Source: a virus (lineage: Duplodnaviria > Heunggongvirae > Uroviricota > Caudoviricetes). Taken from it: DNA of 64,000 nt. Made by a program: the position numbers and the translations under genes. A model generated the notes under the pieces. It saw nothing but the letters and a program-made list of their open reading frames with translations. It was not told where the DNA came from and did no database searches. How positions within the stretch are numbered: position 1 is the stretch's first letter; each line of letters opens with the position of its first letter. The stretch covers positions 21,985 to 85,984 of the IMG/VR virus record IMGVR_UViG_3300012979_000028; one strand, given 5' to 3'. Below, piece after piece: positions 8,366 to 61,982 of the stretch.

Positions 8366-8847
8366 TTTCTTTTTATATAAGTTTTATTTCCATTTTTATT
8401 AATATAATAACGTCCTCCGCGAGGACCTACATAGATATTGTATTTGTATGACTCATTACTTTTATAAGCCTTATTTCTATTTACTTGTTTCTTTTCAACG
8501 TGACCTTCTTTTTTATCCTTTATAGATTTATCTTCTATAGAGCCTTTCTTGATGATCTGACCTGTGATTACACCAGCCTCTGTGTTAGCTACAACTATAT
8601 AGACGTAATCCTTAACCAAGTTAGCAACGTTAACTACATTAGACTCATAAGAAGCAACCAAAGAACCATCTGCAGAGTAAACAGCTACGCTATTAACACC
8701 TTCGTTAGCTACAGTGATAACATCAGCTGCAGGGTTAGGATAGATAGAGATCTCACCCTTAGCAACAATAGTATCATTCATGCTGTTTTGAGAAAATAAC
8801 GTACATGAATAACCGATAACTAATAGTAAAATTAAAAGTTTCTTCAT
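8362..8847 (-). CDS. secreted protein (signal peptide), C-terminal GPRGGRYYINKNGNKTYIKRK motif
   Basis: MKKLLILLLVIGYSCTLFSQ signal peptide. 4-nt overlap with the channel gene. Confidence 0.55.
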   Translation of the reverse strand: MKKLLILLLVIGYSCTLFSQNSMNDTIVAKGEISIYPNPAADVITVANEGVNSVAVYSADGSLVASYESNVVNVANLVKDYVYIVVANTEAGVITGQIIKKGSIEDKSIKDKKEGHVEKKQVNRNKAYKSNESYKYNIYVGPRGGRYYINKNGNKTYIKRK

Positions 8848-11805: not shown

Positions 11806-12081
11806 AGGCAGTAAGTTTTAATGTTTTACATATATAAGGGAGAGGAGAAAAAAAAAAGAAAGGGAAAGATAGTTTTTAATATTCTATCGATCCCTTAAAT
11901 TCTTTTATCTTACCTTACCAACAGCCACTCCATACTTTTCAATTAGTTTAAGAAGTGCTTGGTCTTGGGTTGATACGATTCCATTCTTTGCATTTTCTCT
12001 TACTTTACTTACATTTATTTGTCCTGGTAAGTAAGTTTTTGCAAAGTTCTTTCTAATAATAAGCATATTTTACTACATACA

Positions 12082-12642
12082 TTACATTAGTCCGTCAGAA
12101 TCCACTGCTGCCGTTTCTGTAGTGTTGAATTCCTCCGGATCTAGTACTCTCACTCCATTGTCGTTTACTCCATTTCCGGTAACCTTTACTCCTTTGCTTT
12201 TCAAGAGTTTACAGATGATACAAGCGGCGTTACTACCGTCACAATTTTCGTAATTTTCAGTATACTGCTCACAGAAATCAGGACAGAATGAATCCGTAAA
12301 ATCCTTCAACTTTAACATTGTTGGATTCTTTTGTGTTAGAATTTTGATCACAGACTCTCCTTCATCTGCGAATGCATCATCAACACTACCTGGTTCTGGA
12401 TAATAATTGTTCTTATCATCATCCGCTAACTGTCCACACCATTCGCACAGTGTAGAATTTTTGTCTGCTGTGTTTCTTGGATCTGGAAGTAAGTGGCATA
12501 TCTTAAATAGTGGACATACCTGCCTACAATCATAAATGCCATCTTTGTAACCTGCGGGAATTAGAGTAAAACTTCTTTCTTTCCCTGTCGCATCGTCTTT
12601 TACTACTACGACTTTCTTCTTTAGCATTAAATCACTCGCCAT
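12082..12642 (-). CDS. cysteine-rich hypothetical protein
   Basis: 186 aa with many CxxC-like pairs. Confidence 0.55.
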   Translation of the reverse strand: MASDLMLKKKVVVVKDDATGKERSFTLIPAGYKDGIYDCRQVCPLFKICHLLPDPRNTADKNSTLCEWCGQLADDDKNNYYPEPGSVDDAFADEGESVIKILTQKNPTMLKLKDFTDSFCPDFCEQYTENYENCDGSNAACIICKLLKSKGVKVTGNGVNDNGVRVLDPEEFNTTETAAVDSDGLM

Positions 12643-12718
12643 AATATTATATATATAAATTATTTGGTTTCTTTACTATATATAAGAAAATTAAGGGAAT
12701 GAAAAATACTACTAATTT

Positions 12719-13792
12719 TTAATCTTCTTTTCCTTTATTATTCAGTGCATTATAACCAAGATAAGTAAGACCAGAGATACCAGCAGTTGCACCACCTAAG
12801 ACACCAGCTTTACCCCATCCACTTAATCCATCATACCAACCCTTTTCTTCTTGAGTTGGAGTAGTAGGAGTTTGAGTATTAGTATTAGTAGGGGTTTGAG
12901 GTTGTTGCTGAGTTTGTTGTGTATTAGTAGGGGTTTGAGGTTGTTGCTGAGTTTGTTGTGTATTAGTAGGAGGAGTATTAGTCTGCTGAGTCTGAGTTTG
13001 AGGTTGTTGCTGAGTTTGTTGTGTATTAGTAGGAGGAGTATTAGTCTGCTGAGTCTGAGTTTGAGGCTGTTGTTGTGTTTTTGCTGCCTCTTGTTGTGCT
13101 TTAGCCGCTTCCTGTTCTGCCTGAAGTTGTTTTCCTACCTTTTCTTGAGCAGCTCTTCTTTCATCCCAAGGTTTTTGTGCTTTCGCTGCCTCCTGTTGAG
13201 CTTTCGCCGCTTTAGCTGCTGCCTCTTCTTCTGCCTGAAGTTGTCTACCTACTTCTTCTTGAGCAGCTCTTCTCTTTGCTGTTACATTAACGTCTTTAAT
13301 TCCAGTACCAAGATCTTTATTACTATTACGTAGATTTTCGACTTCCTTAAGCTTATTCTCTAGTTGTTTATCTAAGGCAGGCTGTTCGTTTGTTAGTTTC
13401 TTGATTGTTTTTTCATTATTGTTATAGGCATTTACGTTAGCTATATCTCCTGAAGTTTCTGCCTTTGGTTTTAGGGTTGCTCGATTTGACTGTGCTACTT
13501 CTAGTCCTCTACTATTAGCACTTACAGCATCTCTCGCTACTCTAGCCTCTCTTTCTGCTGCAGCTATACTATTTCTGTTTCTAGCTATCTTAAACGAGTC
13601 CATCCAACCTTTTCCTGACGTACGTTGATTTCTGACACTTTGTATAAATCTTGCTCCGCTCGTAAAAGGGTTAACTGCATATTCTCGTTGTTCTTCTAGT
13701 TCTTGGTAATTGTTATATGCAGCGAATCTTTTTATTTTATACACTCCAGATCCGCAATATTTAATAGGAGAGTGTTGTCTGGTTAGTTTCAT
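12719..13792 (-). CDS. paralog-family protein with internal Q/T/P-rich and AQEEAAK tandem repeats and C-terminal glycine zipper
   Basis: 357 aa. N-terminus MKLTRQH. C-terminus GWGKAGVLGGATAGISGLTYLGY. Contains DNA-level tandem repeats. Confidence 0.6.
   Translation of the reverse strand: MKLTRQHSPIKYCGSGVYKIKRFAAYNNYQELEEQREYAVNPFTSGARFIQSVRNQRTSGKGWMDSFKIARNRNSIAAAEREARVARDAVSANSRGLEVAQSNRATLKPKAETSGDIANVNAYNNNEKTIKKLTNEQPALDKQLENKLKEVENLRNSNKDLGTGIKDVNVTAKRRAAQEEVGRQLQAEEEAAAKAAKAQQEAAKAQKPWDERRAAQEKVGKQLQAEQEAAKAQQEAAKTQQQPQTQTQQTNTPPTNTQQTQQQPQTQTQQTNTPPTNTQQTQQQPQTPTNTQQTQQQPQTPTNTNTQTPTTPTQEEKGWYDGLSGWGKAGVLGGATAGISGLTYLGYNALNNKGKED
12855..13080. repeat. intragenic tandem repeat (about 42-nt and 63-nt units, 2 copies each) encoding QQTQQQPQTQTQQTNTPPTNT
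   Basis: The unit ggttgttgctgagtttgttgtgtattagtagg... is repeated directly. Confidence 0.7.
13085..13275. repeat. second intragenic tandem repeat (about 90-nt unit x2) encoding RRAAQEEVGRQLQAEEEAAKA
   Basis: gctgcctcttgttgtgctttagccgcttcctgttctgcctgaagttg... is repeated. Confidence 0.55.
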
Positions 13793-14069
13793 AAGTTGTA
13801 TTTAAATTTAGTAGTTTCTTTTTATTATCCAATTCTTTTCTCTGTTCAGCTAGGTTTTGTTTTTCTTCTATTAATTTTTGTTGTTGAAGTTTTAATTGAT
13901 TTTCTTTATTAGCTGTTTGAAGACCTGGATTATTATTAGGCATAGGATTAGTAGGTTTCTGAGAGGTCATTGGCATTGGTTTTATTGTATTTCCCACTGA
14001 CTTTACTACCTCTATTGTTTCTGGTTTTCCTATGGTTGATATAAACATTTTTTGTCTCGGAATTCTCAT
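13761..14069 (-). CDS. hypothetical protein (MRIPRQK N-terminus; paralog family)
   Basis: 102 aa. Overlaps the start of the upstream paralog by 32 nt. Confidence 0.4.
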   Translation of the reverse strand: MRIPRQKMFISTIGKPETIEVVKSVGNTIKPMPMTSQKPTNPMPNNNPGLQTANKENQLKLQQQKLIEEKQNLAEQRKELDNKKKLLNLNTTYETNQTTLSY

Positions 14070-17431: not shown

Positions 17432-18770
17432 CAAGGAGTATCGCTACTTCTCCCCGGTTCTCAGGTTTTATCCATGAACTCCTATGAGTTTGCCTCACAG
17501 ATTAGACTATATCTTCATCTTTATTTCTAAAGAGCTTACCGTTTCCACTATGCGAATTTTATAGTGTACTCCCTTTCGGGATAGTCGTTGAGGTTCAATC
17601 TGAAGATTGATTAGTCAGACCAATCTTTTTTATTTCATCTATAAGAGTTTGAGAGTCTGTAATTACATCATACGGATACTCAAATTCTTTTCCGAGATTA
17701 GAGTAGTATAAAACTTTAATACCATGTTCAGTACAAAGGTCTAACTTATTCTTATCTCTTAGTTTTACTTCTTTTAAATTATCCTCTCCTCCAAAGAACA
17801 CAACACTTTTAAAATGTTGAATTCCTTGACATTCAATAATAATATTATAGTCTGGTAAGTAAAAATCTACAAATTGTTTAGAATTATACACCAGCCAATC
17901 CCATGATTTTTGTTCTTCAGCCTTTATTGAGTTTTCATTTAAAATATTTCTTACGTAATCCTCTAAATGGGAACTTTTCACACATTGCGGGCATCTACAG
18001 CCTTGTAAATGGCTCTGAGCTTCCTGGAAAAACTCCCCATGTTCCGGACAGATTATACAAACTTCATCATGAAGATTATTAAATTTAACATTATCATAAT
18101 TATATCTAAAATTATGAATTTTATTTCCTCTTTCTTTGAAAGTTTCAATAGGCATTCTAAATCTTTTTGATAAATTAATTAATTTACAATTAGGACACCC
18201 TCTTCCAATTAGATGTTTAGAAGGACTTTGTTGAAATTCAGTTCCGCATTTATTGCATATTATTGTAACTTTTTCACTAGATCCTTTATAATCTACTTTT
18301 GAATAGGAGAAATTATTTCCATGTATTTTGGAAGCCTTTAATAGAAAATCATCCAGGGAAGTTCTAATTGCCTTCATCTTCTCCTTTCCGCAAATTGGGC
18401 AACCACATCCCCTTAAATGACTTCCAGCTTGCTGATAAAATTCATAATTGTGATTATTACATATAATAGGGATTTTATTTTTTGAACTAATACTATTATC
18501 TACTTTAGAATAATCATATTTATCTCCATGAATTTTTCTTGCCCTTTCAATAAATTTTTCTATAGTTAATTTTTCACTCATTGTACATTGTAATTAAATT
18601 TTATTTTAGATTAAACCTGCTGATTAACTCTATTCACTAGATTTTTACTATAAGCGACTAAATCTTATAGTACTAGTGACCTACGTAAATGTTAATTTAC
18701 TTCGAGTTTTTCCAGCATTTAGTAAGTAATAATTAAGTATCGCTACTTAACAGCGCACATTTTATTATAC
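17432..18770 (-). mobile_element. group I intron carrying a homing-endonuclease ORF
   Basis: 5' core at 18600-18770 (ACTTACTAAATGCTGGAAA...AGTAAAAATCTAGTGAATAGAGTTAATCAGCAGG). 3' core at 17432-17600 (CGACUAUCCCGAAAGGGAG, P8 hairpin CACUAU..AUAGUG, AAGAUAUAGUC). The ORF sits between them. Confidence 0.6.
17595..18581 (-). CDS. intron-encoded putative homing endonuclease: three zinc-ribbon repeats + Vsr/DUF559-like nuclease domain
   Basis: Triplicated module HG..Y.YSKV......K..IIC..HG.F.Q....HL.G.GCP.C. C-terminus FVDFYLPDYNIIIECQGIQHF resembles the DUF559/Vsr-type endonuclease core. Confidence 0.6.
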   Translation of the reverse strand: MSEKLTIEKFIERARKIHGDKYDYSKVDNSISSKNKIPIICNNHNYEFYQQAGSHLRGCGCPICGKEKMKAIRTSLDDFLLKASKIHGNNFSYSKVDYKGSSEKVTIICNKCGTEFQQSPSKHLIGRGCPNCKLINLSKRFRMPIETFKERGNKIHNFRYNYDNVKFNNLHDEVCIICPEHGEFFQEAQSHLQGCRCPQCVKSSHLEDYVRNILNENSIKAEEQKSWDWLVYNSKQFVDFYLPDYNIIIECQGIQHFKSVVFFGGEDNLKEVKLRDKNKLDLCTEHGIKVLYYSNLGKEFEYPYDVITDSQTLIDEIKKIGLTNQSSD

Positions 18771-31192: not shown

Positions 31193-31256
31193 GTTTGTGT
31201 TTTATTTTTCTTTACATATATAAGGCTCCACGGTTAGTTTGGGACGGAAAAATAAT

Positions 31257-31283
31257 AGACCCTAGAATTTCTCCTAAGATCTA
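31257..31283 (-). terminator. repeated terminator-like hairpin (copy 1)
   Basis: agaccctagaatttctcctaagatcta. Inverted repeat AGATCYTAG..CTAAGATCT. Second copy at 31521-31547. Confidence 0.4.
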
Positions 31284-31300
31284 TTTATTATTGCTTAATT

Positions 31301-31495
31301 TTAAGGTTTCTTTAAGCATTCTTTTATTTTAACTATCGCAGCTTCTGCCTCTTCCTTGCTATTGAAGTAATTTCCATCTTTCCAGCGAGAGTCATCAACA
31401 GGGAGATTAAAATCCCTTGTACTATGAACCTCAAATTCTCCTCCCATGCATACTACAGTGTAATATACATCTTCTTTTAACTTTTTTCTTTCCAT
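31301..31495 (-). CDS. hypothetical protein
   Basis: 64-aa ORF followed by the repeated hairpin. Confidence 0.45.
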   Translation of the reverse strand: MERKKLKEDVYYTVVCMGGEFEVHSTRDFNLPVDDSRWKDGNYFNSKEEAEAAIVKIKECLKKP

Positions 31496-31520: not shown

Positions 31521-31547
31521 TAAAATAGATAGATCCTAGAATTTCTC
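31521..31547 (-). terminator. repeated terminator-like hairpin (copy 2)
   Basis: agatcctagaatttctcctaagatcta, 24 nt downstream of the stop of 31571..32416. Confidence 0.4.
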
Positions 31548-31570
31548 CTAAGATCTACCATTATTATTCT

Positions 31571-32416
31571 TTATTTTACAGGAATTTGAATTAGATTACT
31601 TCCTCCACCAGTATAAGTAGGAAGTTTTCCATCCCATTTCTCTATCCAATCTTCCTGAATAATCATAGTAGATAGTGAAGCTGCAATCGTTCTATTATAG
31701 TATGCCTCTGCGTCAGCCTTAATTTTCATAGCCTTTGCATTACCTTCGGCCTGAGCTATAGCTATCTTTGCATTCGCCTCCGCTTTCTTTACTTCATTTT
31801 CAGCTTTTAGACTCTCCTGTATTGACTTATTTTTAGAATCAATTGCTGCCTGAAGTGCTGATGGCGGTATAATCTGAGAAGTAAATTCATGAACTGTAAA
31901 TCCTTCCTCCTCTAGACTTTTCTCTAACATTGCTCGAACTCCTGATTCAAACTCTGCTCGATTTGCCATTAATTGATCACTTGTATATTTATTTGCTGTC
32001 AATCTATAGGCATCAGAAATAACAGTCTTCATATACCCATTTTCAATTTCCCCTAGGTCTCTTCTATACTTGGAGAACACCTGAACAGCCATATCTTTTC
32101 TTAGTTGATATGCCAAGAGTGGATCCATAGTAAAGATAGCAGCGTCCTTGGTAGTTACTGTAAATGGTTCGTAATCTTTTCTTTGTACGAATGTAGGGTA
32201 AGTGAAGACGTCTGTAGTTAGTGGATTATAAAGAACATATCCACTACAATTCTCAGCAATCAACTCACCCTGATCACTTACACTGAACTTCTTGAACTTA
32301 ATACCTACCTCAGAAGAATCAACTGAAGTACAGCAAGTGCAACCTCCTAGTAAACAAAATAGTGCCATTATTCCAATAATGACGTACTTCATTACTTTAA
32401 AATCAAACTTAGTCAT
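31571..32416 (-). CDS. SPFH/band-7 (prohibitin/HflKC-like) membrane protein
   Basis: N-terminal TM. SPFH core. C-terminal coiled coil ...KAENEVKKAEANAKIAIAQAEGNAKAMKIKADAEAYY. Confidence 0.7.
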   Translation of the reverse strand: MTKFDFKVMKYVIIGIMALFCLLGGCTCCTSVDSSEVGIKFKKFSVSDQGELIAENCSGYVLYNPLTTDVFTYPTFVQRKDYEPFTVTTKDAAIFTMDPLLAYQLRKDMAVQVFSKYRRDLGEIENGYMKTVISDAYRLTANKYTSDQLMANRAEFESGVRAMLEKSLEEEGFTVHEFTSQIIPPSALQAAIDSKNKSIQESLKAENEVKKAEANAKIAIAQAEGNAKAMKIKADAEAYYNRTIAASLSTMIIQEDWIEKWDGKLPTYTGGGSNLIQIPVK

Positions 32417-32515
32417 TTTTATTGATTTTTAGTTAATTAATAAATTTTATTATCAATTATAAGAGTTCTCTGGGAAACAAAAAGAAAGCAGGAAATTAAT
32501 CCCACTTTCTTAAAA

Positions 32516-32701
32516 CTACAAGACTATTTCAATTATTCTCTTTAGCCTCTTCATCCTCGTTCTTGCTATCTCAGAGTGACAGCAGAGACAACCTTGTTCT
32601 TTATCCCTCTCCACCAGAAGGATTTCGTTTTTTATTTTCTCCTCGAGTTCCTTTTCATTTTTTGCCCCGAACTCCTTGAGCAAGCTTTTCATGTTTTCCA
32701 T
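32516..32701 (-). CDS. small hypothetical protein
   Basis: 61 aa. Promoter-like motif 20 nt upstream. Confidence 0.4.
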   Translation of the reverse strand: MENMKSLLKEFGAKNEKELEEKIKNEILLVERDKEQGCLCCHSEIARTRMKRLKRIIEIVL

Positions 32702-32720
32702 ATTGTTTTGTGTTTTTTGT

Positions 32721-32760
32721 TCATATATAAGGGTTTTAGGGGAGAAGAAAAAAATAAAGC
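32721..32760 (-). promoter_or_regulatory. terminator-promoter cassette (GGCTTTATTTTTTT-CTTCTCCCCTAAAACCC-TTATATATGA)
   Basis: A stereotyped cassette between 32803..35523 and 32516..32701, with the ATG 20 nt downstream. Confidence 0.45.
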
Positions 32761-32802
32761 CTTAATTCTTTTTACAGAACAAGACTTTATTTGGTTTAAG
32801 TA

Positions 32803-35523
32803 TTAGCTAAATTCAACTACAATCTTAGAATCAGCGTCAACGTCTAGCTTTACTTTAGTTTTATCACTGACACTTTCTTCTAGCATCTTCTTACAAATTT
32901 CCTTCTGAATGTAGTCGTTGATCAATCGTTTCAAAGATCTAGCGCCATACTTAGGATCTACTTTAGAAACAACTAGCTCTTTTACCTTTGAAGTAGCTTT
33001 GATATCAAGTTTTCTTTCTTTCTTAATCATATCATGCAACTTCTTTAGCTCAAGGTCGTAGATATTTCCTAGTTTATCCTTATCTAGACTATTGAATACG
33101 ACAATCTTAGTTAGTCTGTTAAGGAACTCTGGACGAAATTCATTGTTAACCTCTTTCATCACGGTATTAACATCAAACTTCTTCTTTTCCTCACCTTCCA
33201 ACTTTCCGAATCCAATACCACTACCTTTCAGTTCTAGAGCCTTAGTACCTACATTTCCAGTGAAGATAATGATACAGTTTCTACAGCTTACTTTTTCACC
33301 AGAGCTTAGAGTAATTTCACCTTCTTCCAGCATATTAAGCCAGATATTATATAGGTTACTGCTACTCTTTTCAATCTCATCAATTAGTAGAACTGTGTAA
33401 GGCTGTCTTTTAAGAATATACAACCTAGGCTCTGTACTATCAAAACCAACATAACCTGGAGCAGATCCTAAGAGTTTACTTTCACTCCAATCTTGCATAT
33501 ATTCACTGCAGGAAATAGTTACAAGATTTTTCTCACCACCAAAGAACTCCTCTGCAATTGTTTTAGCCATCAAGGTTTTTCCTACACCAGTACATCCAAC
33601 AAACAAGAAGGATGCAATAGGTTTCTTTGGATCACGTAGTCCTAGTAGATTCTGTTGTAATGCGATACTCAACTCTTCTACTGCCTCTTCCTGACCTACA
33701 ACTTTCTTTTCAATCTGAGCTTTCATTACTCTAACTTTGTCTAGGTCAGTACTCTTTATCTTATCAACAGGTACACCGGAAGTTTCAGAAATTACTTTAA
33801 CCACATCATCAATAGTAACTGTAGTCCAAGAAAGTCTATCCTTCTCTAGTTTGGCTTTTTGCTTTTCTAGATCCAGCTTAAGTTCATCAATCTTATCTTT
33901 GAGTTCAGAAGCCTTGTCGAAATTATCAAAGTCGTTTAGGATAATATCATTCTTTGTTTTACTTAGACTAGCAATTTCATTTTCTAGTGTTTTAATCATA
34001 GAAGTGTCTGCCGGTCTAGAAATTTTAACCTCTGAACCTGCTTTATCCAAGATTCTAATAGCTTTAGCAGGGAAGAAGCCATCGTAAATATATCTATCTG
34101 CCAATTCTACACAAGCGATCAGGGCATCATCGGCGTACTTTACTTTGTGATATTTCTCGTAAACCTTTGAAACTCCCTTAACTATGCTTATTGTATCCTG
34201 AATTCCTGGTTCTCCGATAAAGATAGGTCCAAAACGTCTGACTAGAGCTTTATCTTTTTCAATAAATTTTCTATACTCGGCTGTTGTAGTAGACCCGATG
34301 CACTGAAATTCTCCTCTACTCAAGAAAGGTTTTAGAATGTTTGCCATATCACCATTACCCTCTTTTGCACCAGCTCCAGCACCCATCATATTGTGAATTT
34401 CATCAATATATACAATGACATTCTTAGCATTAATCACCTCTGTAATGATAGTCTGTAGTCTCTCTTCAAACTGGCCTCTATACATACAACCAGCCACTAC
34501 AGCATTAACATCGAGATTGTAAATTACCTTATCTTGTAGAAATTCAGGTACTCTCTTATCTTTCTTTGCAATAAGTCCAGCCAAGAACTCTATTATAGCC
34601 GTCTTACCACAACCAGGATCACCCAAGAGTAGAGGATTATTACAAAGGCGACAACTAAGAACTCTAATAATCTCCATGACCTCATTATCTCTACCAATAA
34701 CTGGATCATAGTTGCTATTAAGTGCTTTCTCATTCATATTAATAGCAAAGGTATCTAGAGTTGGAGTGTTAGTTTCTTTTTTCTTGAATCCTGAAACAGC
34801 TCCATCCATGCCAAACTTCTCAAACTCTTTCTTGGCACTCTTCTTAGCTTTTTCGTAGTCATCCTCTTTACTACTCTCAGCCACTCTCTTCTTTACCCAA
34901 TCCTCTACATTCTTCTCTAGGTATCGTTTGAAGTCCTCCGCCATGTCATCATCTTCTTCACCGTTAGATTGTCTTTTCTTGAATTCAAATCTACTAAGAG
35001 AGGGAGACTTCTTGTAATACTGCTCAATGTCAATACCATACTTCTTTAGAACAGTCAATGAATCCTCGTAAGTTAACTTGAATTCTTTGATAGATACTTC
35101 CATGGTCAAGAATCCGATAATGATGTGTGAAGTATCTAGAGAAAACTCATCTGGATCATCTCCCTTCATCTGATAAGAAGCATTCAGTATATAGATACAC
35201 TTCTTAATGAATCTATCTAGCTCATCTGTATACTCACACTTGTCCGGATCTCCCATGATTTCAACTTTAGCAGCCTCTTTGAAACAATCATTTAGCTCGT
35301 TACATAAGTTGTCGCGATCTGTAATTGAAAGATTATTAATTAACTCTAAGAATATTGGACAGTCTACATTTCTAGTAGAATCACTCAAACTATCTCTGTA
35401 AGTTCTGACAATACTTAGAATTAATGAACTAGCGGTGATCTGATTTAGCTGCTGTCCCGTTGATAGAATAGCTGCTCTGCTTATAATCTCGCTTAGCTCT
35501 CTACTAAATTTTACTCTTTTCAT
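32803..35523 (-). CDS. ClpC/ClpB-like Hsp100 AAA+ chaperone (two NBDs + Clp_N repeats)
   Basis: NBD1 LLLGDPGCGKTAI...VIVYIDEIH. NBD2 FLFVGCTGVGKTLMAK...VLLIDEIEK plus sensor-2 region GARSLKRLI. N-terminal Clp_N-like repeats. Confidence 0.85.
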   Translation of the reverse strand: MKRVKFSRELSEIISRAAILSTGQQLNQITASSLILSIVRTYRDSLSDSTRNVDCPIFLELINNLSITDRDNLCNELNDCFKEAAKVEIMGDPDKCEYTDELDRFIKKCIYILNASYQMKGDDPDEFSLDTSHIIIGFLTMEVSIKEFKLTYEDSLTVLKKYGIDIEQYYKKSPSLSRFEFKKRQSNGEEDDDMAEDFKRYLEKNVEDWVKKRVAESSKEDDYEKAKKSAKKEFEKFGMDGAVSGFKKKETNTPTLDTFAINMNEKALNSNYDPVIGRDNEVMEIIRVLSCRLCNNPLLLGDPGCGKTAIIEFLAGLIAKKDKRVPEFLQDKVIYNLDVNAVVAGCMYRGQFEERLQTIITEVINAKNVIVYIDEIHNMMGAGAGAKEGNGDMANILKPFLSRGEFQCIGSTTTAEYRKFIEKDKALVRRFGPIFIGEPGIQDTISIVKGVSKVYEKYHKVKYADDALIACVELADRYIYDGFFPAKAIRILDKAGSEVKISRPADTSMIKTLENEIASLSKTKNDIILNDFDNFDKASELKDKIDELKLDLEKQKAKLEKDRLSWTTVTIDDVVKVISETSGVPVDKIKSTDLDKVRVMKAQIEKKVVGQEEAVEELSIALQQNLLGLRDPKKPIASFLFVGCTGVGKTLMAKTIAEEFFGGEKNLVTISCSEYMQDWSESKLLGSAPGYVGFDSTEPRLYILKRQPYTVLLIDEIEKSSSNLYNIWLNMLEEGEITLSSGEKVSCRNCIIIFTGNVGTKALELKGSGIGFGKLEGEEKKKFDVNTVMKEVNNEFRPEFLNRLTKIVVFNSLDKDKLGNIYDLELKKLHDMIKKERKLDIKATSKVKELVVSKVDPKYGARSLKRLINDYIQKEICKKMLEESVSDKTKVKLDVDADSKIVVEFS

Positions 35524-35528
35524 ATTAT

Positions 35529-35954
35529 TTATTTAAATTTATTTTCTGTTTCGTTTATAAGAGATTGAGGCTGTTTCTTAGTTAACTTTTTTGCTATCTC
35601 TTCTGTAAAAAACTTCTTCTGAAAATATCCCACCGGGTCAAAATATGCATAAATAACTCTAGGAACTATAATCAGAGGTATCCAGAGTGGTCCTAATATT
35701 CTAGAAGACAAAACATAACCATAAGACTTCCTTAACTTAATATTAGTAAACCAAGAGTCCGCAGATATAAAAATGTAGTCCCCTAGTGTAAAATCATCCA
35801 TAAAACAACTGCGACAAATAGTAGAATAGAAATAAACCCCATTCACTTTCTTTAATGTACAGTATGAATTATAGTCAGTATAGATAAACTTAATAATGAT
35901 TAGTGCAATAATGTTTTGAGGAAATTGCCATAACCATAATAATACTCTTTTCAT
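35529..35954 (-). CDS. hypothetical protein
   Basis: 141 aa. Confidence 0.45.
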   Translation of the reverse strand: MKRVLLWLWQFPQNIIALIIIKFIYTDYNSYCTLKKVNGVYFYSTICRSCFMDDFTLGDYIFISADSWFTNIKLRKSYGYVLSSRILGPLWIPLIIVPRVIYAYFDPVGYFQKKFFTEEIAKKLTKKQPQSLINETENKFK

Positions 35955-50062: not shown

Positions 50063-52225
50063 TTACTTGCCTATATTTTGTAACTCTTCCTCAATACATT
50101 TTTCATAGTAATCATAAGAGTTATATTCCAAGGCTTCCTCTAATCTACTTTCACTTAGACTCTCCCCATGCTCTTTAACTAATTCTAAGAAGCGAGACTG
50201 AGACATTTCACCTTTCTGACCAAGTTCTTTTCCAACCACTAAGAGCAATTTTTTATTTTCCTCTAAGATTTGTTTAGTTCTATCTAGGCAGCGTTTGAAA
50301 AATCCTCTTACTTCAATCATAGCTTCATCATCATTCATACCAAGTGGAATACCGTTATTTAATGATTCTCCATCCTTAGTATAAGACATAAAGTTTTTCA
50401 GACCACATCTATAAACAGCATTAGTTAATTTATCCCAAGCATCACAGATATCACTACTACTGCCTAATAATCTCTTGTCATCATCCTGGAACGTAATTTT
50501 CTCAGCATACCAACCTCCAGCACTAATACAAACATCATTCTTTATATCCATGATGCTATCAATCTCATTAATTCTATCTTTATCATGAGTTACACAGAAG
50601 CCTCCATGATTAGTAGAAACTGCAACAATACTAAGAGGAAGTTTACCAGTCAGATAGGACATTACAATAGCGTGTCCTGCCTCATGAATTCCACAGATAA
50701 ATCTAGTCTTTCGGTTTACTGGATCTCTATCTCCTCCTAAGTTTAATTTAATAGTCTTAGTATCTGTATGTCCATTAGAATACTTTAGATAAACCTGAAC
50801 CTCTGGAACCTTAAAATCTGATTCGTCAACATCAATTTCTACACTAATATCTTTCTGATCTCCCACATATAATAAGATGTCAGATAAGAATGGTGTAAAT
50901 AGTGAGTTGATTGTTGATAGAATAGGTCTTACTCCTTGGGTTGGGAATACACTCTCCGAATAAAGTAACTGTAAGAATGAAAGTGTAGTTTTAATCTCTA
51001 CTCCAAACAATTTCTCAGTTTCATTACAGATTCTATCAACCTCTTTCTTGATAATATCCTTAAAGTGTTGTTTCCCTAGAGTTGGATATTTAATCAGGTT
51101 ATTTCCGAATCTGGCTATCTGTTCTGGTCTAAATCTACGACGAAGTGCATCTTTAATATCTCCAATAGTTACTTTAGATGTCTCTTCATGAAATATATCA
51201 GCATCAAGGTCAGAACTCATATCACCTGAAACTTGATATGCCTCATCTAAGTTACCAATACAAAAAACCAAGCCCTTAGATACGTCAATGGTCACTGGAG
51301 TTACTAAGCAGCTTCTCACTTGGTTAATATAGTTGTAAAATTCTCCTAGTGTTTTAATGCTATTAACTTTATCAAATACAGTTCTCATTGTAGCACTGCC
51401 GTTAAGTTTTTTCTCTAAAGTTAATAAGCTCTTTAGAAGTTTAGAGGATACTGTATCTGTACAATCTTCAACTAGTAGAGAAAGACTTCTGTAATTATCC
51501 TGAATCTCTTCCTCATTTTTCTTTGTTCTTTTATAATTCTCAAATCGTCGAGGCTCCCATAAAAATCTATCCTTGTAATAAATAAATCCTAGGGAGTCTA
51601 GTATTTTCTTAACTTCATCTCTATTAACAACTTTTCCATCTACTAGCTTTATATTCGCATTACTAGGAGACTCTTGTAAAAATTCTTCAAGAGAGGTTAG
51701 AAAATTGAAGATCTCATAGGTTTGATAGTCATTATTTTCATTAAACTCTACAAGACCTGAGTCAATAATAGTAAAGATAGATTGTAAGGATTGATTTCTA
51801 ACTTCACATCCATTCTCATCTATAAATCTTGCATGTTGAAACTCATCAAAGATAAATACAGTTTTCTCACAGAGTTGGTTTATAGATCGAGGGTCTTCTA
51901 TTTCTCCTACCATAAAATAATCATACAACTTCCTAGAAATAGACTTATAACTATCTTCACCAGCTTCAGATCCACAGTCTACAGCTATTGTACTTTTCTG
52001 AAGATCTAGTAATTCCAGAAGTCTTCTTACTACACTAGTTTTTCCTACTCCACTCATACCCCAGAGAGAAATAACAACAGGTCTTTTTAAAACTTCTGGA
52101 GTAATATACCAAGGGGTGATGCTTTTTCCAATCTCATCTATAATAGAGTCTAACCCTATAAATTCAGTCTTTAATTGGGATAGTACTTCATCTAGCTTTT
52201 TGATCTTTTCAAGTCTTTCACTCAT
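50063..52225 (-). CDS. FtsH-like protein: divergent P-loop/AAA-like N-terminal domain + M41 zinc metalloprotease domain
   Basis: Walker A WGMSGVGKTS. Walker B VFIFDEFQ. C-terminal GIHEAGHAIV (HEXXH) plus ...SAGGWYAEKI...GSSSDI, parallel to the FtsH peptidase domain. Confidence 0.65.
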   Translation of the reverse strand: MSERLEKIKKLDEVLSQLKTEFIGLDSIIDEIGKSITPWYITPEVLKRPVVISLWGMSGVGKTSVVRRLLELLDLQKSTIAVDCGSEAGEDSYKSISRKLYDYFMVGEIEDPRSINQLCEKTVFIFDEFQHARFIDENGCEVRNQSLQSIFTIIDSGLVEFNENNDYQTYEIFNFLTSLEEFLQESPSNANIKLVDGKVVNRDEVKKILDSLGFIYYKDRFLWEPRRFENYKRTKKNEEEIQDNYRSLSLLVEDCTDTVSSKLLKSLLTLEKKLNGSATMRTVFDKVNSIKTLGEFYNYINQVRSCLVTPVTIDVSKGLVFCIGNLDEAYQVSGDMSSDLDADIFHEETSKVTIGDIKDALRRRFRPEQIARFGNNLIKYPTLGKQHFKDIIKKEVDRICNETEKLFGVEIKTTLSFLQLLYSESVFPTQGVRPILSTINSLFTPFLSDILLYVGDQKDISVEIDVDESDFKVPEVQVYLKYSNGHTDTKTIKLNLGGDRDPVNRKTRFICGIHEAGHAIVMSYLTGKLPLSIVAVSTNHGGFCVTHDKDRINEIDSIMDIKNDVCISAGGWYAEKITFQDDDKRLLGSSSDICDAWDKLTNAVYRCGLKNFMSYTKDGESLNNGIPLGMNDDEAMIEVRGFFKRCLDRTKQILEENKKLLLVVGKELGQKGEMSQSRFLELVKEHGESLSESRLEEALEYNSYDYYEKCIEEELQNIGK

Positions 52226-55934: not shown

Positions 55935-56618
55935 TTATAAACAGCTCTGAATAATTTGTCGAACTGCCATCTTTGCTATACACTCACTTCCAAACTCACT
56001 GTCAAAGTAAAATCTAGACTTAGTAGAGATAATTTCAACCTCAAGCTCATCTCCATCTTTATCTACTGACTTCACAATTACTTTCACTGATTGCTTTCCT
56101 GGATCAATCTTATACTTATCCCAGAATATCTTAGGAACTTGAATAGGAGTATCGATTTCAGTTAGCTCCAAGTCACTTAAAGGAATTCCTAGATCTTCAA
56201 CATCAATACTATCAGCTGTTATTGTATTGTACTTTGCATCAAATTCTAGAATAAGCATCTCTTTAAATCTCTCAGCTCCTCCAAATCCAGTCTCAGAAGT
56301 TACAGGGATTATAGAATTTTCATCATTAATCTGAAAAAGCGTACTATCCCATTTAAAAGTATCTCCCGGTTTTAGTTCTGGTGGATTACCCAAGAACTCT
56401 CTATTTTGAATTAAGTTCTCAGGTTTCAATGCATCTTCACTCCCTGGATCTACACCATCTTTTAATTTGGCTGGAAAATCACTACTCTCCCAATCCACTA
56501 TTCCATTCAGCTTTGTTAATAGGTTAGGGATTTCAATGAAGTAGTAACGATCCTTTAACTTTTCATCACTAGGATCAAGACCGTGTTTCATGCCTCTACC
56601 GAAAATAGATAAAATCAT
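55935..56618 (-). CDS. hypothetical protein
   Basis: 227 aa. 4-nt overlap with the upstream IMPDH-like gene. Confidence 0.5.
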   Translation of the reverse strand: MILSIFGRGMKHGLDPSDEKLKDRYYFIEIPNLLTKLNGIVDWESSDFPAKLKDGVDPGSEDALKPENLIQNREFLGNPPELKPGDTFKWDSTLFQINDENSIIPVTSETGFGGAERFKEMLILEFDAKYNTITADSIDVEDLGIPLSDLELTEIDTPIQVPKIFWDKYKIDPGKQSVKVIVKSVDKDGDELEVEIISTKSRFYFDSEFGSECIAKMAVRQIIQSCL

Positions 56619-57691
56619 AAGTGTATATATTTTACATTATTCTTAAAAGACTTCCAATCAATACTAGAAGTCATAACAAATCCATAATTAAAACACTCAT
56701 ACATTCCCTTAAGCCAAGTTTCTAGATTAGAGTTTATAACTACATTCTCACATCTAGAGTCTACTGGCTTTTTCTTTTTTACAGTACTCTCCCACTTTTC
56801 TACACTAGAATAACCTGCTCTTTCTGCCTGAGTTTGATTTGTAGTGTTTCCTTTATAGATTCTAACTAATTCTAATCTCTTCAGTGAATCTACATCCATG
56901 TTAACCAGGTCTTCTTTATTCTGAGGTTCTAGGACTCTTTTCTTCTCGTTAGTATCATAGACCTCTTTATAAATATCACCATTAGCCTCTAGTAGTTTTG
57001 CAAATTCTCTACCAATCATCACGTAGTCTGCACCTAAAGCAATACATTTTAGGATATCTGACGGACTCTTAATACCACCATCAGCAATAATCTTAGTCTG
57101 CTTTAATCCAACTCCTGTAGTCTTCTTAGTTGTATTTATGTCTATCAGAAGCGAAGCCATAGGATAATAGAAACCGTACTTCTCATAATCCACTAGTGAT
57201 CCAGAACTTAAACCAACTCTTACATAATCAAAATCAGCTCTACAATAGTCTAGGTAAGTAGAAGGGTTTCCAATATTACCACCCATTATTGATACTCTAG
57301 GACCATAAATTCTTCTCAAGTTCTTTCCAATTTCTAGAACCTCTGTATCATGACCATTTCCAGCATCAATACAAATTCTAATCAGTGGTGTTGGAGACTT
57401 ATTGATGTTAACTATAAAATGCTGCTTAACTTCCTCCTTACTGAAAGCTACAAAGATATAACCACAAGCCTCTAATCTAAATTCAATAGACTCAGTTCTC
57501 GGGATTACTGGCTTTATTCCATTATTAGGCCATATTTTCCAGTTTGAAGATCCCACTACAGCTTCCATTGGACTCGTAAAGATAGGTAGAGACGGTTCAA
57601 CATCATCTACTGCAAAATTAAAATTACCTTGTACAGAATTACCTGAATTAAGCTCTGTAGGTAATAATGCTATGCCATCAAGTTCTAACAT
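56615..57691 (-). CDS. IMPDH/GMP-reductase-family TIM-barrel protein lacking the canonical catalytic cysteine
   Basis: PIFTSPMEAVVG, RICIDAGNGH, IADGGIKSPSDILKCIALGADYVMIG match GuaC/GuaB blocks. The GIGPGSVCTTR position reads GLSSGSLVDYE. Confidence 0.65.
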   Translation of the reverse strand: MLELDGIALLPTELNSGNSVQGNFNFAVDDVEPSLPIFTSPMEAVVGSSNWKIWPNNGIKPVIPRTESIEFRLEACGYIFVAFSKEEVKQHFIVNINKSPTPLIRICIDAGNGHDTEVLEIGKNLRRIYGPRVSIMGGNIGNPSTYLDYCRADFDYVRVGLSSGSLVDYEKYGFYYPMASLLIDINTTKKTTGVGLKQTKIIADGGIKSPSDILKCIALGADYVMIGREFAKLLEANGDIYKEVYDTNEKKRVLEPQNKEDLVNMDVDSLKRLELVRIYKGNTTNQTQAERAGYSSVEKWESTVKKKKPVDSRCENVVINSNLETWLKGMYECFNYGFVMTSSIDWKSFKNNVKYIHL

Positions 57692-57732
57692 ATTTTATAA
57701 TTTTATACTACTATCTATAAGAAATTTAGGGC

Positions 57733-58599
57733 TTACATACTTATACTATCCATGTACCCAGTTAAGAGCTTTACATAATCCGCATATTCCTGAGTTTCAA
57801 ATATCCACTCTCCCCTCTGTCTAGTCTCTTCTCCCGGATAATGTATGTCAACCTCTTTAAATACTCTACACGGATTGGCTTGAAGAATGAATACCTTGTT
57901 AGAAATATAGGCAACTTCTTCAATACTATGACTTACATTGATAATAGTAGGGTCATCTAGTGAAGGGTCATAGAATATCTTCAACATAATATTCTGTACT
58001 TCCCTCTTCATCTTAATATCCAATGCACCTGTAGCTTCATCAAATAAAATAATCTTTGAATTACAAGCTAGACAACGGGCAATAGCTACTCTCTGTTGTT
58101 GACCCCCGGATAGTTTAGAAGGGTATTTATCTACGTGATCCTTTAAACCTACACAATCTAGAAGTTCGAGGGCTCTATTCTTAGCTTCCGCCTCACTAAT
58201 TCCTCTACAAGTCATAGGTATCATCACATTCTCTAATACAGTATACCACTCAAAGTTACTGTAAGTCTGAAATACCATTGGAAAACTGTGATTACTACTT
58301 ACAGGCTCTCCATAAACTTTTACAGTACCTTCATTAAATTTACTAAGTCCTGCAATAACCTTTAACATCTGAGACTTACCACAACCTGAAGCTCCCATGA
58401 TAGAAACTAGTTGAGCTTGACCAGGAATATCAGGGATGGTTAAGTTAAAATTCTCAAATAACTTATACTCATTAGGCAAGCCAGGGTTAAAGATGTGTGT
58501 TATATTCTCTAACTGGATTACTGGAGTTAGGTTATTATTCTGCTGACTACTTGGTAAATCAGAAGCCATCAGATTATCTATGTTTATTTGTCTACTCAT
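57733..58599 (-). CDS. ABC transporter ATP-binding protein (NitT/TauT family)
   Basis: Walker A GASGCGKS. Signature LSGGQQQRVAIAR. Walker B ILFDEATGALD. Confidence 0.85.
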   Translation of the reverse strand: MSRQINIDNLMASDLPSSQQNNNLTPVIQLENITHIFNPGLPNEYKLFENFNLTIPDIPGQAQLVSIMGASGCGKSQMLKVIAGLSKFNEGTVKVYGEPVSSNHSFPMVFQTYSNFEWYTVLENVMIPMTCRGISEAEAKNRALELLDCVGLKDHVDKYPSKLSGGQQQRVAIARCLACNSKIILFDEATGALDIKMKREVQNIMLKIFYDPSLDDPTIINVSHSIEEVAYISNKVFILQANPCRVFKEVDIHYPGEETRQRGEWIFETQEYADYVKLLTGYMDSISM

Positions 58600-59411
58600 T
58601 TTCTTTTGAATTTAAAGATTACTGGTTCGAATAATTTAATAATCTGATCCTGCAATATTCCAATCAAGATTATAATCAACAAGAGGGCATAAACACTATC
58701 AATCTGACTTTGCTTCGTCATTGTGTTTATTAAAGCTCCTAAACCACCATCTTTGTTTATATTTTCTGCAATAGTTACGTAAGTATAGGATATTGCTACT
58801 AAACTTCGAATATCACTATAAACTCTTGACATAACAAAAGGGACATATATCTTCCAGAATGTATCCCACTTTCCTAATCCGATAGTTTTAGCTGTCTGAA
58901 GGTATACATTATCTTTCGGGTTATTAGGGTCTTGTAATTCAGTAACTCTTTGTGTAACTACCGGAAGAATATAGATCAAAATACCAAGAGCCAAGAAACT
59001 AGCCTTCATATCAAATCCAATTCCGAATATAGCTACCATAATTCCACTAACTGCAGGAAGAGGTAAAAATCTTATTGCTTCTAGTGGCTTTTGGAACATA
59101 GCTCTAGGAAGTGGATATATACCTATAATAAAACCTGCAGGGATAGCTATAATCAGTGCATATACGTAGCCAAGCAGATTAAGAGAGATAGTATACCAGA
59201 TATTACTAAAGAGCCTAGACTCCGTAATTAATCTAGGAATACTTGTTAATACATCTATCGGGTTTGGTAAAATTTTATTAGATATCCAACCCATCTTTGT
59301 AACTAGAAACCAAAAAAGTAGGAGGAATATACCCCCTACTATACCAGTTATTATTGATTTCTTGGATTCTAGACTTCCTCCGAATTTCAATAACTCCTTC
59401 ATACTTCTCAA
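58596..59411 (-). CDS. ABC transporter permease (NitT/TauT family)
   Basis: 6-TM topology. 4-nt overlaps with both neighbours. Confidence 0.7.
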   Translation of the reverse strand: MRSMKELLKFGGSLESKKSIITGIVGGIFLLLFWFLVTKMGWISNKILPNPIDVLTSIPRLITESRLFSNIWYTISLNLLGYVYALIIAIPAGFIIGIYPLPRAMFQKPLEAIRFLPLPAVSGIMVAIFGIGFDMKASFLALGILIYILPVVTQRVTELQDPNNPKDNVYLQTAKTIGLGKWDTFWKIYVPFVMSRVYSDIRSLVAISYTYVTIAENINKDGGLGALINTMTKQSQIDSVYALLLIIILIGILQDQIIKLFEPVIFKFKRK

Positions 59412-61981: not shown

Positions 61982-61982
61982 C

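Follow-up and report, generated by a model that had tools for sequence, protein, structure and literature searches.

Do a ClpC-type Hsp100 gene and a prohibitin-like SPFH gene that stand side by side on a viral contig form one machine, or are they separate cargo? An earlier note on this DNA had taken the former view, and had proposed that both genes, together with FtsH-like and PspA-like genes, serve a viral programme manipulating membrane-protein quality control of the host. We analysed the locus within the whole stretch of 64,000 nucleotides (hereafter the window). In our preferred reading, to which we give a probability of about 0.6, the two genes are independent cargo of a jumbo phage of Bacteroidales, namely an old ClpC-class unfoldase and an SPFH protein captured from the host.

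Features of the locus and its probable viral character

Both reading frames were present as the note had described them. The features referred to below are as follows.

35529..35954 (-): orf141, small pseudo-zincin containing two hydrophobic segments, its stop codon 5 nt upstream of the Clp start codon
32803..35523 (-): predicted ClpC-class two-ring AAA+ unfoldase gene, 906 aa, stop included (Pfam, PDB match, AF2/Foldseek)
35008..35523 (-): predicted N-domain, aa 1-172, strongly diverged double Clp_N repeat of eight helices (hhalign, AF2, Foldseek)
34768..35007 (-): extra linker, aa 173-252 (alignment, model)
34009..34767 (-): NBD1, aa 253-505 (motifs from alignment and clade conservation)
33838..34008 (-): M-domain, aa 506-562, two-helix coiled coil of ClpC length (alignment and model)
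33094..33837 (-): NBD2, aa 563-810 (Pfam, alignment)
33208..33216 (-): IGF tripeptide, aa 770-772, putative ClpP-docking loop (alignment to B. subtilis ClpC)
32516..32701 (-): 61-aa ORF (orf61) between Clp and SPFH, with no detectable conservation
32482..32511 (-): terminator-like hairpin, 12-bp stem and T-run, between orf61 and the SPFH start (weak evidence)
31571..32416 (-): predicted prohibitin-type SPFH/Band_7 lipoprotein gene, 281 aa (Pfam, phrog_200, Prohibitin-2 match)
32339..32416 (-): signal peptide and lipobox-like LLGG-C26 of the SPFH protein (hand-read motif)
50063..52225 (-): soluble AAA-M41 metalloprotease, 720 aa, context only (Pfam, NCBIfam)

The window has a GC content of 33%, and it also holds an ABC transporter and an IMPDH-like gene. 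Coding is mostly on one strand and the majority of genes had no Pfam match. PHROG matches comprised a T4-type topoisomerase II (E 8e-70), a homing HNH endonuclease (E 5e-62), a primase and a DHH phosphoesterase. No capsid, portal, terminase or tail genes were identified within the 64 kb; as the window is without a virion gene, its phage status is a matter that we infer. This gap, the transporter and IMPDH-like genes, and GenBank phage records that matched neither the window (megablast) nor its M41 protease would all suit a non-viral origin, from a bacterial chromosome, a plasmid or some other large element, with an ordinary cellular ClpC and prohibitin. Such an origin is nevertheless highly improbable, given the PHROG matches, the nearly one-strand coding with Pfam silent on most genes, the lack of tRNA and rRNA genes in the window, the narrow size range of the contigs of relatives (200-400 kb), the presence of the M41-protease family on at least 108 IMG/VR viral contigs, and a Clp protein only ~42% identical to any cellular ClpC. 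We infer that the window is part of a large (jumbo) phage of gut Bacteroidales.

The Clp ATPase and its possible partners

In the 906-aa protein, Pfam detected AAA (E 2.5e-21), AAA_lid_9 (3.9e-24), AAA_2 (5.6e-43) and ClpB_D2-small (1.5e-14), values which, like that of Band_7 in the 281-aa protein (E 1.1e-18; 68 bits against a 23.6-bit cut-off), are far beyond chance. The closest PDB structure was B. subtilis ClpC (E 5e-161), aligned in a single unbroken stretch (aa 245-903, M-domain included); ClpB matches break in two at the M-domain. The full-length AF2 model (pLDDT 78.5) had ClpC/ClpP complexes as its top-ranked Foldseek matches, phrog_4871 'ATP-dependent protease' matched aa 199-903 (E 6e-191), and no membrane segment was predicted. 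Among the best 25 NCBIfam matches (ClpB, ClpA, TssH/ClpV, ClpK, ClpG), every equivalog cut-off lay above the score of the protein. NBD1 carries Walker A GDPGCGKT (aa 301-308), Walker B IDEIH, pore loop MYRGQFE and Arg finger VRRF, and NBD2 carries Walker A GCTGVGKT (aa 643-650), Walker B IDEIEK and pore loop GYVG. Walker A motifs are kept in 36 of 38 clade members, and a few members did not match the pore-loop patterns. In the M-domain, DNFDKASELKD aligns to QEFEKAASLRD of ClpC, retaining the F436-equivalent aromatic. Judged by these matches, the protein is a two-ring ClpC-class AAA+ unfoldase, full length and with two NBDs as the earlier note had held, and the Pfam searches placed neither ORF in an unrelated family. 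With all motor motifs intact, it would form an ATP-driven double ring.

The Clp_N repeats claimed by the note were recovered by profile-profile comparison (hhalign Prob 90%, E 1.5e-6) and in the N-domain AF2 model (pLDDT 87), whose top Foldseek PDB matches were all Clp/Hsp100 N-domains (TM 0.5-0.67, 10-16% identity), but Pfam was silent on them at E<0.01. Mean pairwise identity of this domain within the clade is 23%, against 78% for NBD2, the most conserved region, and the domain appears to be fast-evolving with its fold retained. The linker that follows is 50% charged (20 D/E, 20 K/R) and modelled with low confidence; together, N-domain and linker take up 252 aa here versus ~161 aa in cellular ClpC, and they would pick the substrates. 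Equivalents of E32 and E106, the two glutamates that organise the phospho-arginine pockets of ClpC, are Ser in the window's own lineage. Since mutation of these glutamates in S. aureus ClpC frees the repressed resting state (PMC12583610), the phage protein may, speculatively, be adaptor-independent or constitutively primed.

By sequence identity, the protein is a member of an old, phage-specific clade, found on contigs of 200-340 kb. Its members are 53-97% identical to each other and ~42% identical to cellular ClpC, and no phage copy in IMG/VR or GenBank exceeds 45% identity to them.

A check for a ClpP-binding loop (IGF/L), as proposed in the note, was positive. The IGF sits in a helix-loop-helix that aligns to the loop (VGF) by which B. 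subtilis ClpC docks on ClpP, and is flexible in the model (pLDDT <50). G771 is invariant and F772 at least 90% conserved in the clade, while the loop flanks vary. Searches for ClpP itself were negative: tblastn with two ClpP sequences gave nothing in the window and clade loci, and the CLP_protease Pfam domain was absent from every window ORF of at least 150 aa. Docking to ClpP through the IGF loops is most likely, as read from the alignment, and because no ClpP gene is encoded nearby, the partner would be the host's own ClpP, giving a phage-directed protease. A phage ClpP, or a second SPFH partner, may lie in the part of the genome (roughly 300 kb in all) beyond the window.

The same lack of ClpP from the neighbourhoods of the window and clade members would also suit a stand-alone unfoldase, disaggregase or assembly chaperone for large jumbo-phage proteins. 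Help of this kind was suggested by Iyer et al. for phage ClpA/ClpX-like ATPases, translocase or virion-assembly roles having been proposed for jumbo-phage AAA+ chaperones (PMC7824862), and ClpP-independent roles exist among ClpC homologues (PMC10128030). However, the docking tripeptide [IVL]G[FY] is kept amid variable flanks in 36 of 38 clade members, a pattern that makes little sense unless the loop docks on ClpP, and we consider action without ClpP unlikely. The M-domain speaks in the same direction, being of ClpC size, unlike the long ClpB/Hsp104 type. The latter serves Hsp70-coupled disaggregation.

The SPFH protein and its adjacency to Clp

The note had called the 281-aa protein HflK/C-like. 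This stands at the level of the SPFH superfamily only: the NCBIfam HflK model scored 30 against a cut-off of 159, the NCBIfam HflC model gave no match at E<=0.001, and the sole solved relative by sequence was Prohibitin-2. With phrog_200 'lipoprotein' matching as well (E 1.7e-58), the protein is, on sequence criteria, a prohibitin-type SPFH lipoprotein and not HflK/C. The lipoprotein call is a motif read by hand and not the output of a dedicated predictor; among 108 homologues, 106 have a Cys at most 8 aa upstream of the domain start and 107 a hydrophobic run. Given this conserved lipoprotein-type signal, the protein should be extracytoplasmic. It would be exported and lipid-anchored, and in infected cells it would build SPFH ring scaffolds at the envelope or be incorporated into them. 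There it may act in envelope or lysis timing, modulate host FtsH, or exclude other phages.

Because chromosomal Bacteroidales genes are 64-71% identical to it, the SPFH gene looks like a recent capture from a Bacteroidales host, taken once by the window's phage sub-lineage. Genes of 66% identity stand among housekeeping genes on Bacteroidales contigs of 155-617 kb, and the phage copies form one 13-tip clade. The direction from host to phage is read from a midpoint-rooted NJ tree (not a rooted ML phylogeny), the greater diversity of host copies and their chromosomal context.

A Band_7 gene follows Clp in four loci (the window, L007, L008 and L009), all of the window's sub-lineage. It is absent from this position in all three sister loci (L002/3, L004/5 and L006), and none was found within 6 kb of Clp in 80 IMG/VR Clp loci. 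The Clp proteins of the four loci are 57-70% identical, so that the adjacency shows some retention, down to 57% Clp identity, in a region where gene order is collinear overall. A more constant neighbour of Clp is orf141, which lies directly upstream in L002/3, L004/5, L007, L008 and L009 too. Searches of orf141 against Pfam and PHROG gave no match; its family comprises 255 representative clusters with the consensus motif HEYGHxxQS, and it has KSYGY where the family shows HExGH. Speculatively, orf141 is the best candidate for a Clp partner or adaptor.

The FtsH-like gene of the note exists as the M41 protease, and it appears to be an old phage gene. Its product carries Walker A GMSGVGKT, resembles ClpB_D2-small over aa 355-473 and has HEAGH at aa 514 in its M41 domain. 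As the protease has no TM segment and its AAA module is Clp-D2-like and not classical FtsH, it does not belong with the FtsH-type proteases for quality control of membrane proteins. The window yielded no homologue of PspA/IM30.

Partnership of SPFH proteins with AAA proteases is established (HflK/C with FtsH, prohibitin with m-AAA), and an SPFH cage could likewise organise protease and unfoldase at the membrane in one viral programme. The order kept in four loci despite divergent Clp proteins, co-occurrence of Clp and the M41 protease on the same contigs, and the two hydrophobic segments of orf141, which could tether Clp to the membrane, would fit such a programme, and read-through co-transcription is possible since the region is all on one strand. 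Against it stand the sub-lineage restriction of the adjacency, the recent capture of SPFH compared with the old phage Clp and M41 genes, the different predicted compartments (SPFH with a lipoprotein signal; Clp and the M41 protease without a TM segment), the curated model placing SPFH outside HflK/C, the missing PspA-like gene and, as weak evidence, the hairpin between Clp and SPFH (four terminator-like sites found versus 2.1 expected in shuffles). We therefore regard the single programme as improbable. What survives of the earlier interpretation is its underlying observation and the presence of several proteostasis genes, and not their joint work in membrane-protein quality control. Under the independent-cargo reading, Clp and SPFH would have come side by side through gene insertion and not as a shared machine.

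Comparison with known systems

Domain order is identical to that of Firmicutes/Actinobacteria ClpC (B. subtilis ClpC/MecB, S. aureus ClpC, M. tuberculosis ClpC1): Clp_N double repeat, NBD1, short M-domain with the common F436-equivalent aromatic, NBD2 with (I/V)GF loop, and D2-small. The core (aa 245-903) is 40% identical. The phage protein differs in its Pfam-invisible N-domain (only 10-16% identical), the added ~80-aa charged linker, Ser at the pArg-pocket glutamates, and its place on a phage of Bacteroidales with MecA, McsB and ClpP genes not nearby.

Clp ATPases and SPFH proteins had each been recorded in phages before, and to call them unusual cargo, as the note did, overstates the case. 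ClpA-like, ClpX, ClpP and ClpS genes of jumbo phages were listed by Iyer et al. 2021 (PMC7824862), and two-ring Clp ATPases occur on at least 568 IMG/VR contigs. The window's Clp resembles these and phrog_4871 as auxiliary cargo of large phages, but its clade has its own N-domain and linker, stays at or below 45% identity, and keeps the pseudo-zincin neighbour.

Band_7 lipoprotein-like cargo is common in phages (phrog_200; matches in 672 GenBank phage records), including crAss-like phages, Lak megaphages and T4-like 44RR, Aeh1 and RB43. Identity of the window's SPFH to crAss-like and Lak copies is only 32-43%, and to one unannotated faecal phage contig 56%; being much closer to host genes, it was apparently captured separately. 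The SPFH gene of crAss-like phage cr126_1 lies two genes from a peptidoglycan hydrolase and not beside a Clp ATPase. The Bacteroidales 'prohibitin family protein' (for example P0161 of Paludibacteraceae and P0203) matches over the full, equal length, with signal, Cys and domain start VDSSEVGIKF identical; the phage-encoded copies differ in forming their own clade. With HflK/HflC-FtsH of Proteobacteria, the window shares the SPFH superfamily and, in broad terms, the concept of an AAA protease regulated by a cage of SPFH proteins. Unlike that system, it has a single SPFH gene instead of a pair, a lipoprotein-type signal instead of a type-II TM anchor, and as neighbour a cytosolic ClpC-like ATPase instead of membrane FtsH.

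A ClpC-class ATPase and the gene beside it

Two adjacent genes were recovered where the earlier note had placed them, and their domain families agreed with its assignments, namely AAA, AAA_lid_9, AAA_2 and ClpB_D2-small (Pfam) in the longer protein and Band_7 in the shorter one. Together with the gene on the other side of the Clp gene, they are as follows:

32803-35523, minus strand: Clp protein, 906 aa
31571-32416, minus strand: SPFH protein, 281 aa
35529-35954, minus strand: orf141, 141 aa, ending 5 nt before the Clp start codon

The Clp protein falls into phrog_4871 'ATP-dependent protease' (PHROGs, E 6e-191), and its closest solved structure by sequence is B. subtilis ClpC (E 5e-161). This alignment runs unbroken over aa 245-903, passing through the M-domain, i.e. 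the coiled coil between the two AAA+ modules NBD1 and NBD2. At the M-domain, alignments with ClpB and Hsp104 fall into two pieces and those with ClpA end; the M-domain of ClpB is about twice as long as that of ClpC, and ClpA has none. In the full-length AlphaFold model (pLDDT 78.5), the M-domain consists of two helices forming a coiled coil at aa 508-561. An aromatic residue equivalent to F436 is retained there, and a Foldseek search with the model returned ClpC/ClpP and MecA/ClpC/ClpP complexes in the first ranks. Walker A and B are intact, as are the two pore loops, the arginine fingers and sensor 2; the motifs are GDPGCGKT/IDEIH/YRG in NBD1 and GCTGVGKT/IDEIEK/GYVG in NBD2. The ClpP-binding loop for which the earlier note advised a search was also found: IGF at aa 770-772, sitting within a flexible loop, aligns to the VGF docking loop of ClpC. 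Among clade members, [IVL]G[FY] is present at the docking position in 36 of 38, with G771 invariant and the flanks variable. The protein therefore has the two AAA+ modules, short M-domain and docking loop of ClpC, and its N-domain is recognisable by fold only.

Other classes were rejected. As for a ClpB/Hsp104 disaggregase, TIGR03346 scored 614 against a cut-off of 1232, the M-domain alignment is split and the IGF loop is present. As for ClpA, ClpV, ClpK and ClpG, the NCBIfam models reached 548, 534, 510 and 504 bits (cut-offs 993, 885, 1900 and 1900, respectively). The Clp protein is under every NCBIfam equivalog cut-off among those listed, and its identity to the best cellular ClpC is about 42%, Firmicutes and Bacteroidaceae being equal in this respect. 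From this, the protein is placed in an old, phage-specific ClpC-class clade and is not regarded as the product of a recent host gene.

Two-ring Clp ATPases occur on at least 568 IMG/VR contigs. A search of IMG/VR with the single Clp sequence gave no match, and an alignment-based search gave matches at no more than 45% identity. Many of the top matches to the Clp protein in GenBank are unannotated 'phage' records of 3-13 kb (Listeria, Enterococcus, Staphylococcus), which look like host DNA and were not counted in favour of phage carriage. PADLOC returned generic AAA matches only, with none for the SPFH protein or orf141, and assignment to a defence or anti-defence system was set aside on this result. 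In the literature on phage two-ring Clp ATPases or phage SPFH proteins we found catalogue-level mentions with no tested function: Clp-family genes are listed in jumbo phages by Iyer et al. 2021 (PMC7824862), and SPFH ORFs in T4-like phages have been on record since 2006 (PMC1524935).

The Clp_N repeats claimed in the earlier note were supported by profile and fold, and Pfam did not detect them (no PF02861 match at E<0.01). When a profile of the phage N-termini was compared with that of cellular ClpC N-domains, hhalign gave a probability of 90% and an E-value of 1.5e-6 at 12% identity. The N-domain, comprising the first 172 residues, was modelled with AlphaFold (AF2) at pLDDT 87 and pTM 0.86, and the top PDB matches of this model in Foldseek were exclusively Clp/Hsp100 N-domains (TM 0.5-0.67, 10-16% identity). 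According to the model, the Clp_N fold has been kept, with extreme divergence of its sequence. The N-domain is joined to NBD1 by an extra segment of about 80 residues, 50% of them charged, which cellular ClpC does not have. Within the phage clade, the N-domain and this linker have mean pairwise identities of 23% and 28%, respectively, as compared with 68% for NBD1 and 78% for NBD2. The motor is thus conserved, and the recognition end is fast-evolving yet folded.

In ClpC of S. aureus and B. subtilis, E32 and E106 organise two phospho-arginine pockets, and their mutation destabilises the repressed resting state (PMC12583610). Most other members of the phage clade have E or D at the equivalent positions. 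None of the equivalents is acidic in the window Clp protein, with Ser at both (ITASS, DTSH), or in its nearest relative (P0002), with Ser and Leu, and the phospho-arginine pocket as defined for ClpC is not found in the window protein.

Directly upstream of Clp, orf141 has counterparts in the related loci L002/3, L004/5, L007, L008 and L009 (54-66% identity), and as a neighbour of Clp it is better conserved than SPFH. It has no Pfam or PHROG match and contains two moderately hydrophobic segments. By exhaustive search, it was assigned to a family of unannotated proteins of about 130 aa (255 representative clusters) with the zincin-like consensus HE-x-GH-xx-QS. In all six Clp-linked phage copies, (K/H)-(S/A)-Y-G-Y stands in place of this motif. 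Judged by sequence, orf141 is a conserved putative pseudo-peptidase. We may speculate that it is the best candidate for a partner of the Clp protein, possibly an adaptor or an anchor.

The SPFH protein and its association with Clp

Band_7 was detected in the 281-aa protein at 68.4 bits (Pfam gathering cut-off 23.6), and the protein falls into phrog_200 'lipoprotein' (PHROGs, E 1.7e-58). Its likeness to HflK/C, as proposed in the earlier note, did not hold: TIGR01933, the HflK model, reached 30.2 where 159.4 is the cut-off, HflC models gave no match at E<=0.001, and no HflK/C chains were among its PDB sequence matches (E<=0.01). A single Band_7 gene is present at the locus and there is no hflK-hflC pair. 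Among solved structures, human Prohibitin-2 alone is related to it by sequence, and residues 109-241 of Prohibitin-2 align with the C-terminal helix. The features of a prohibitin-type SPFH protein, i.e. Band_7, a hydrophobic N-terminus with a conserved Cys and a C-terminal helix, were all found. The N-terminus has a basic start and a hydrophobic run followed by LLGG-C26, and in 106 of 108 homologues a Cys lies at most 8 residues upstream of the domain start VDSSEVG. As this lipoprotein-type N-terminus agrees with the PHROG label, the SPFH domain is predicted to be extracytoplasmic. No NfeD partner was detected by Pfam on the neighbouring ORFs.

The SPFH protein is 64-71% identical to proteins annotated at NCBI as 'prohibitin family protein' in MAGs of Paludibacteraceae and other Bacteroidales. 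Two host homologues were inspected; they lie on contigs of 155-617 kb, amid housekeeping genes (CTP synthase, HflX, DNA polymerase III delta, GTP cyclohydrolase, BACON-domain proteins). A distance tree groups the phage copies into one clade of 13 tips, and the host copies diverge from each other about as much as from the phage clade. These sequences would be read most simply as the outcome of a single capture event in a Bacteroidales host, with vertical inheritance thereafter. In a Paludibacteraceae chromosome (L012 8001-9580), the SPFH gene overlaps the start of a PrsW-family membrane protease gene by 4 nt, which suggests, from one host genome, that host SPFH may act with a membrane protease other than FtsH.

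SPFH matches were present in 672 GenBank phage records, and captures seem to have been repeated in Bacteroidales phages (crAss-like, Lak and the present group). In the crAss-like phage cr126_1 (L172 3459-5085), an SPFH gene is located two genes upstream of a peptidoglycan hydrolase, which by analogy hints at a lysis- or envelope-linked role for phage SPFH lipoproteins. A homologous gene in cr85_1 is mislabelled 'serine protease'.

Band_7 directly follows Clp in the window and in loci L007, L008 and L009, the Clp proteins of which share 57-70% identity. It is missing after Clp in L002/3, L004/5 and L006, where upstream gene order is otherwise kept, and no SPFH gene was found within 6 kb of a two-ring Clp ATPase in any of 80 IMG/VR loci. 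The stretch between the two genes includes an ORF of 61 aa and a hairpin resembling a terminator (32511-32482), the latter being weak evidence. The sigma-70 promoter scan was set aside as uninformative for Bacteroidota-type promoters. Since the two genes differ in history and predicted compartment, and since their association is patchy and possibly interrupted by a terminator, a host gene that was captured and inserted into the variable stretch following Clp accounts best for the adjacency; the pairing itself is probably fortuitous. For the small ORFs that follow SPFH, tblastn gave no counterparts in relatives, and no clean insertion scar was demonstrable.

Just downstream of SPFH, two near-identical hairpins on the minus strand (31528-31559 and 31254-31285; 14-bp stems with 0 and 1 mismatch; core TAGATCTTAGGAGAAATTCTAGGATCTA) flank a 64-aa ORF (31301-31495). 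No further copies were found in the window, and none would be expected by chance. Elsewhere in the group, L009 1-1079 contains an IS1595-family transposase and a gene with the toxin-antitoxin related SocA_Panacea domain, just upstream of ThyX and on the opposite strand. This shows that mobile-element insertion occurs in this phage group.

Other genes, probable phage nature and likely host

The earlier note also counted an FtsH-like and a PspA-like gene to the same program. The former corresponds to the following ORF:

50063-52225, minus strand: M41 protease, 720 aa

An M41 domain (E 3.9e-8) with an intact HEAGH motif is present. The ORF does not qualify as FtsH: no TM segment and no PF00004 AAA match were found in it, and the FtsH model TIGR01241 reached 35 where 600 is the cut-off. 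For its ATPase part it has one P-loop module (Walker A GMSGVGKT) followed by a ClpB_D2-small-like region. The family gave 810 matches of about 700-740 aa on contigs of 200-416 kb, including contigs bearing the Clp clade, and in IMG/VR it occurs on at least 108 viral contigs, mostly of 200-400 kb; a described function for it was not found. By its sequence features, the 720-aa ORF is a soluble AAA-M41 protease of jumbo phages and not a membrane quality-control FtsH. No PspA-like gene could be substantiated, as PF04012 matched no window ORF of at least 150 aa (19 of 40 ORFs rescanned at E<=1 or 0.01, the rest at E<=0.001). At sequence level, no PspA/Vipp1 chains were among the PDB matches of two coiled-coil ORFs at 60944-62762.

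The GC content of the window is 33%, coding is nearly all on the minus strand, and the majority of ORFs have no Pfam match. The large subunit of a T4-type topoisomerase II was identified (phrog_543, E 8e-70, PHROGs), together with a homing HNH endonuclease, a primase, a DHH phosphoesterase, ThyX and an AAA ATPase. As a set, the genes that can be recognised are what is usual where a very large phage has its replication and auxiliary functions; no tRNA or virion genes were found in the 64 kb. Neither megablast with 12 kb around the locus nor tblastn with the M41 protease gave a match to GenBank phages, indicating that the phage group is absent from annotated GenBank records. The Clp relatives lie on contigs of 212-340 kb, and from this, combined with the distribution of the M41 family on viral contigs, we infer that the window is very likely jumbo phage DNA.

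Several further observations concern the window itself. The homing HNH endonuclease (17595-18581, minus strand; phrog_559, E 5e-62) has a DUF4379 treble-clef zinc finger and is located amid replication genes. At 12001-14000, AT skew is -0.29 and GC skew -0.04, as against about -0.08 and -0.2 elsewhere; this anomaly coincides with a 357-aa ORF (12719-13792) with no assigned family. A run of auxiliary genes of cellular type occupies 56615-60907 on the minus strand. It comprises an IMPDH/GMP-reductase-like gene, an ABC transporter ATPase, a permease and a fusion of a substrate-binding protein (NMT1/phosphonate-binding type) with an OmpA domain; this fusion also matches phrog_25518.

Within 7670-8847 (minus strand), a 231-aa Ion_trans/Ion_trans_2 channel protein overlaps a 161-aa ORF by 4 nt. 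The latter has a weak match to the T9SS sorting domain Por_Secre_tail (26.5 bits, cut-off 27), which points to a Bacteroidota host. Taken together with the relatives of SPFH, this sorting domain makes Bacteroidales the most likely source of the host.

Possible functions of the two proteins

We propose that the ClpC-class motor would dock on host ClpP, giving the phage its own substrate choice. Loss of the pocket glutamates in the window lineage may lessen its dependence on activation, and the SPFH protein would act on the envelope independently.

That the motor instead works as a chaperone independent of ClpP seems rather unlikely. In line with such a role, tblastn with ClpP of E. coli and B. 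subtilis gave no match, either in the window or in the sequence flanking clade members, and CLP_protease (Pfam) matched no window ORF of at least 150 aa; the docking loop, conserved almost throughout the clade, speaks for ClpP. Neither MecA nor McsB genes were detected in the window. If the loop is used, it might engage host ClpP, or else a ClpP from another part of the phage genome. The earlier note had seen in Clp and SPFH a single module for membrane-protein quality control, an idea which draws on their adjacency in four loci and which we regard as highly improbable, given the patchiness of the association and the different origins and predicted compartments of its members. A non-viral origin of the window is barely credible in view of the contigs on which its relatives occur, the lack of virion genes in the window being what could be said for it.

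A broader scenario, decidedly doubtful as a whole, would join all parts into a phage ClpP-targeting arm with an N-domain and linker engaged in an arms race, orf141 as adaptor or anchor, and SPFH in host rings. The motor, having lost the pocket residues that maintain repression, would destroy proteins of host defence or of the envelope. Across the membrane from it, the captured SPFH protein would co-assemble with host SPFH rings and upset quality control in the envelope.

In gut and animal metagenomes, members of the Clp clade are abundant; their inferred hosts are Bacteroidales, the phage-host biochemistry of which is little studied. If docking on ClpP is true, the hypervariable N-domain would mark the proteins that the phage must destroy. 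The SPFH gene is a clear case in which a phage has recently captured a membrane scaffold from a host. Each of the two genes is of a kind already catalogued in phages (phrog_4871 and phrog_200); new is the distinct phage ClpC-class clade, with its unrecognisable N-domain, its charged linker and the pseudo-zincin linked to it. Known phage strategies employ small adaptors or inhibitors, for example ClpS-like proteins or lambda CIII; if the motor described here docks on host ClpP, the virus would supply the substrate-selecting ATPase and thereby redirect the host protease.
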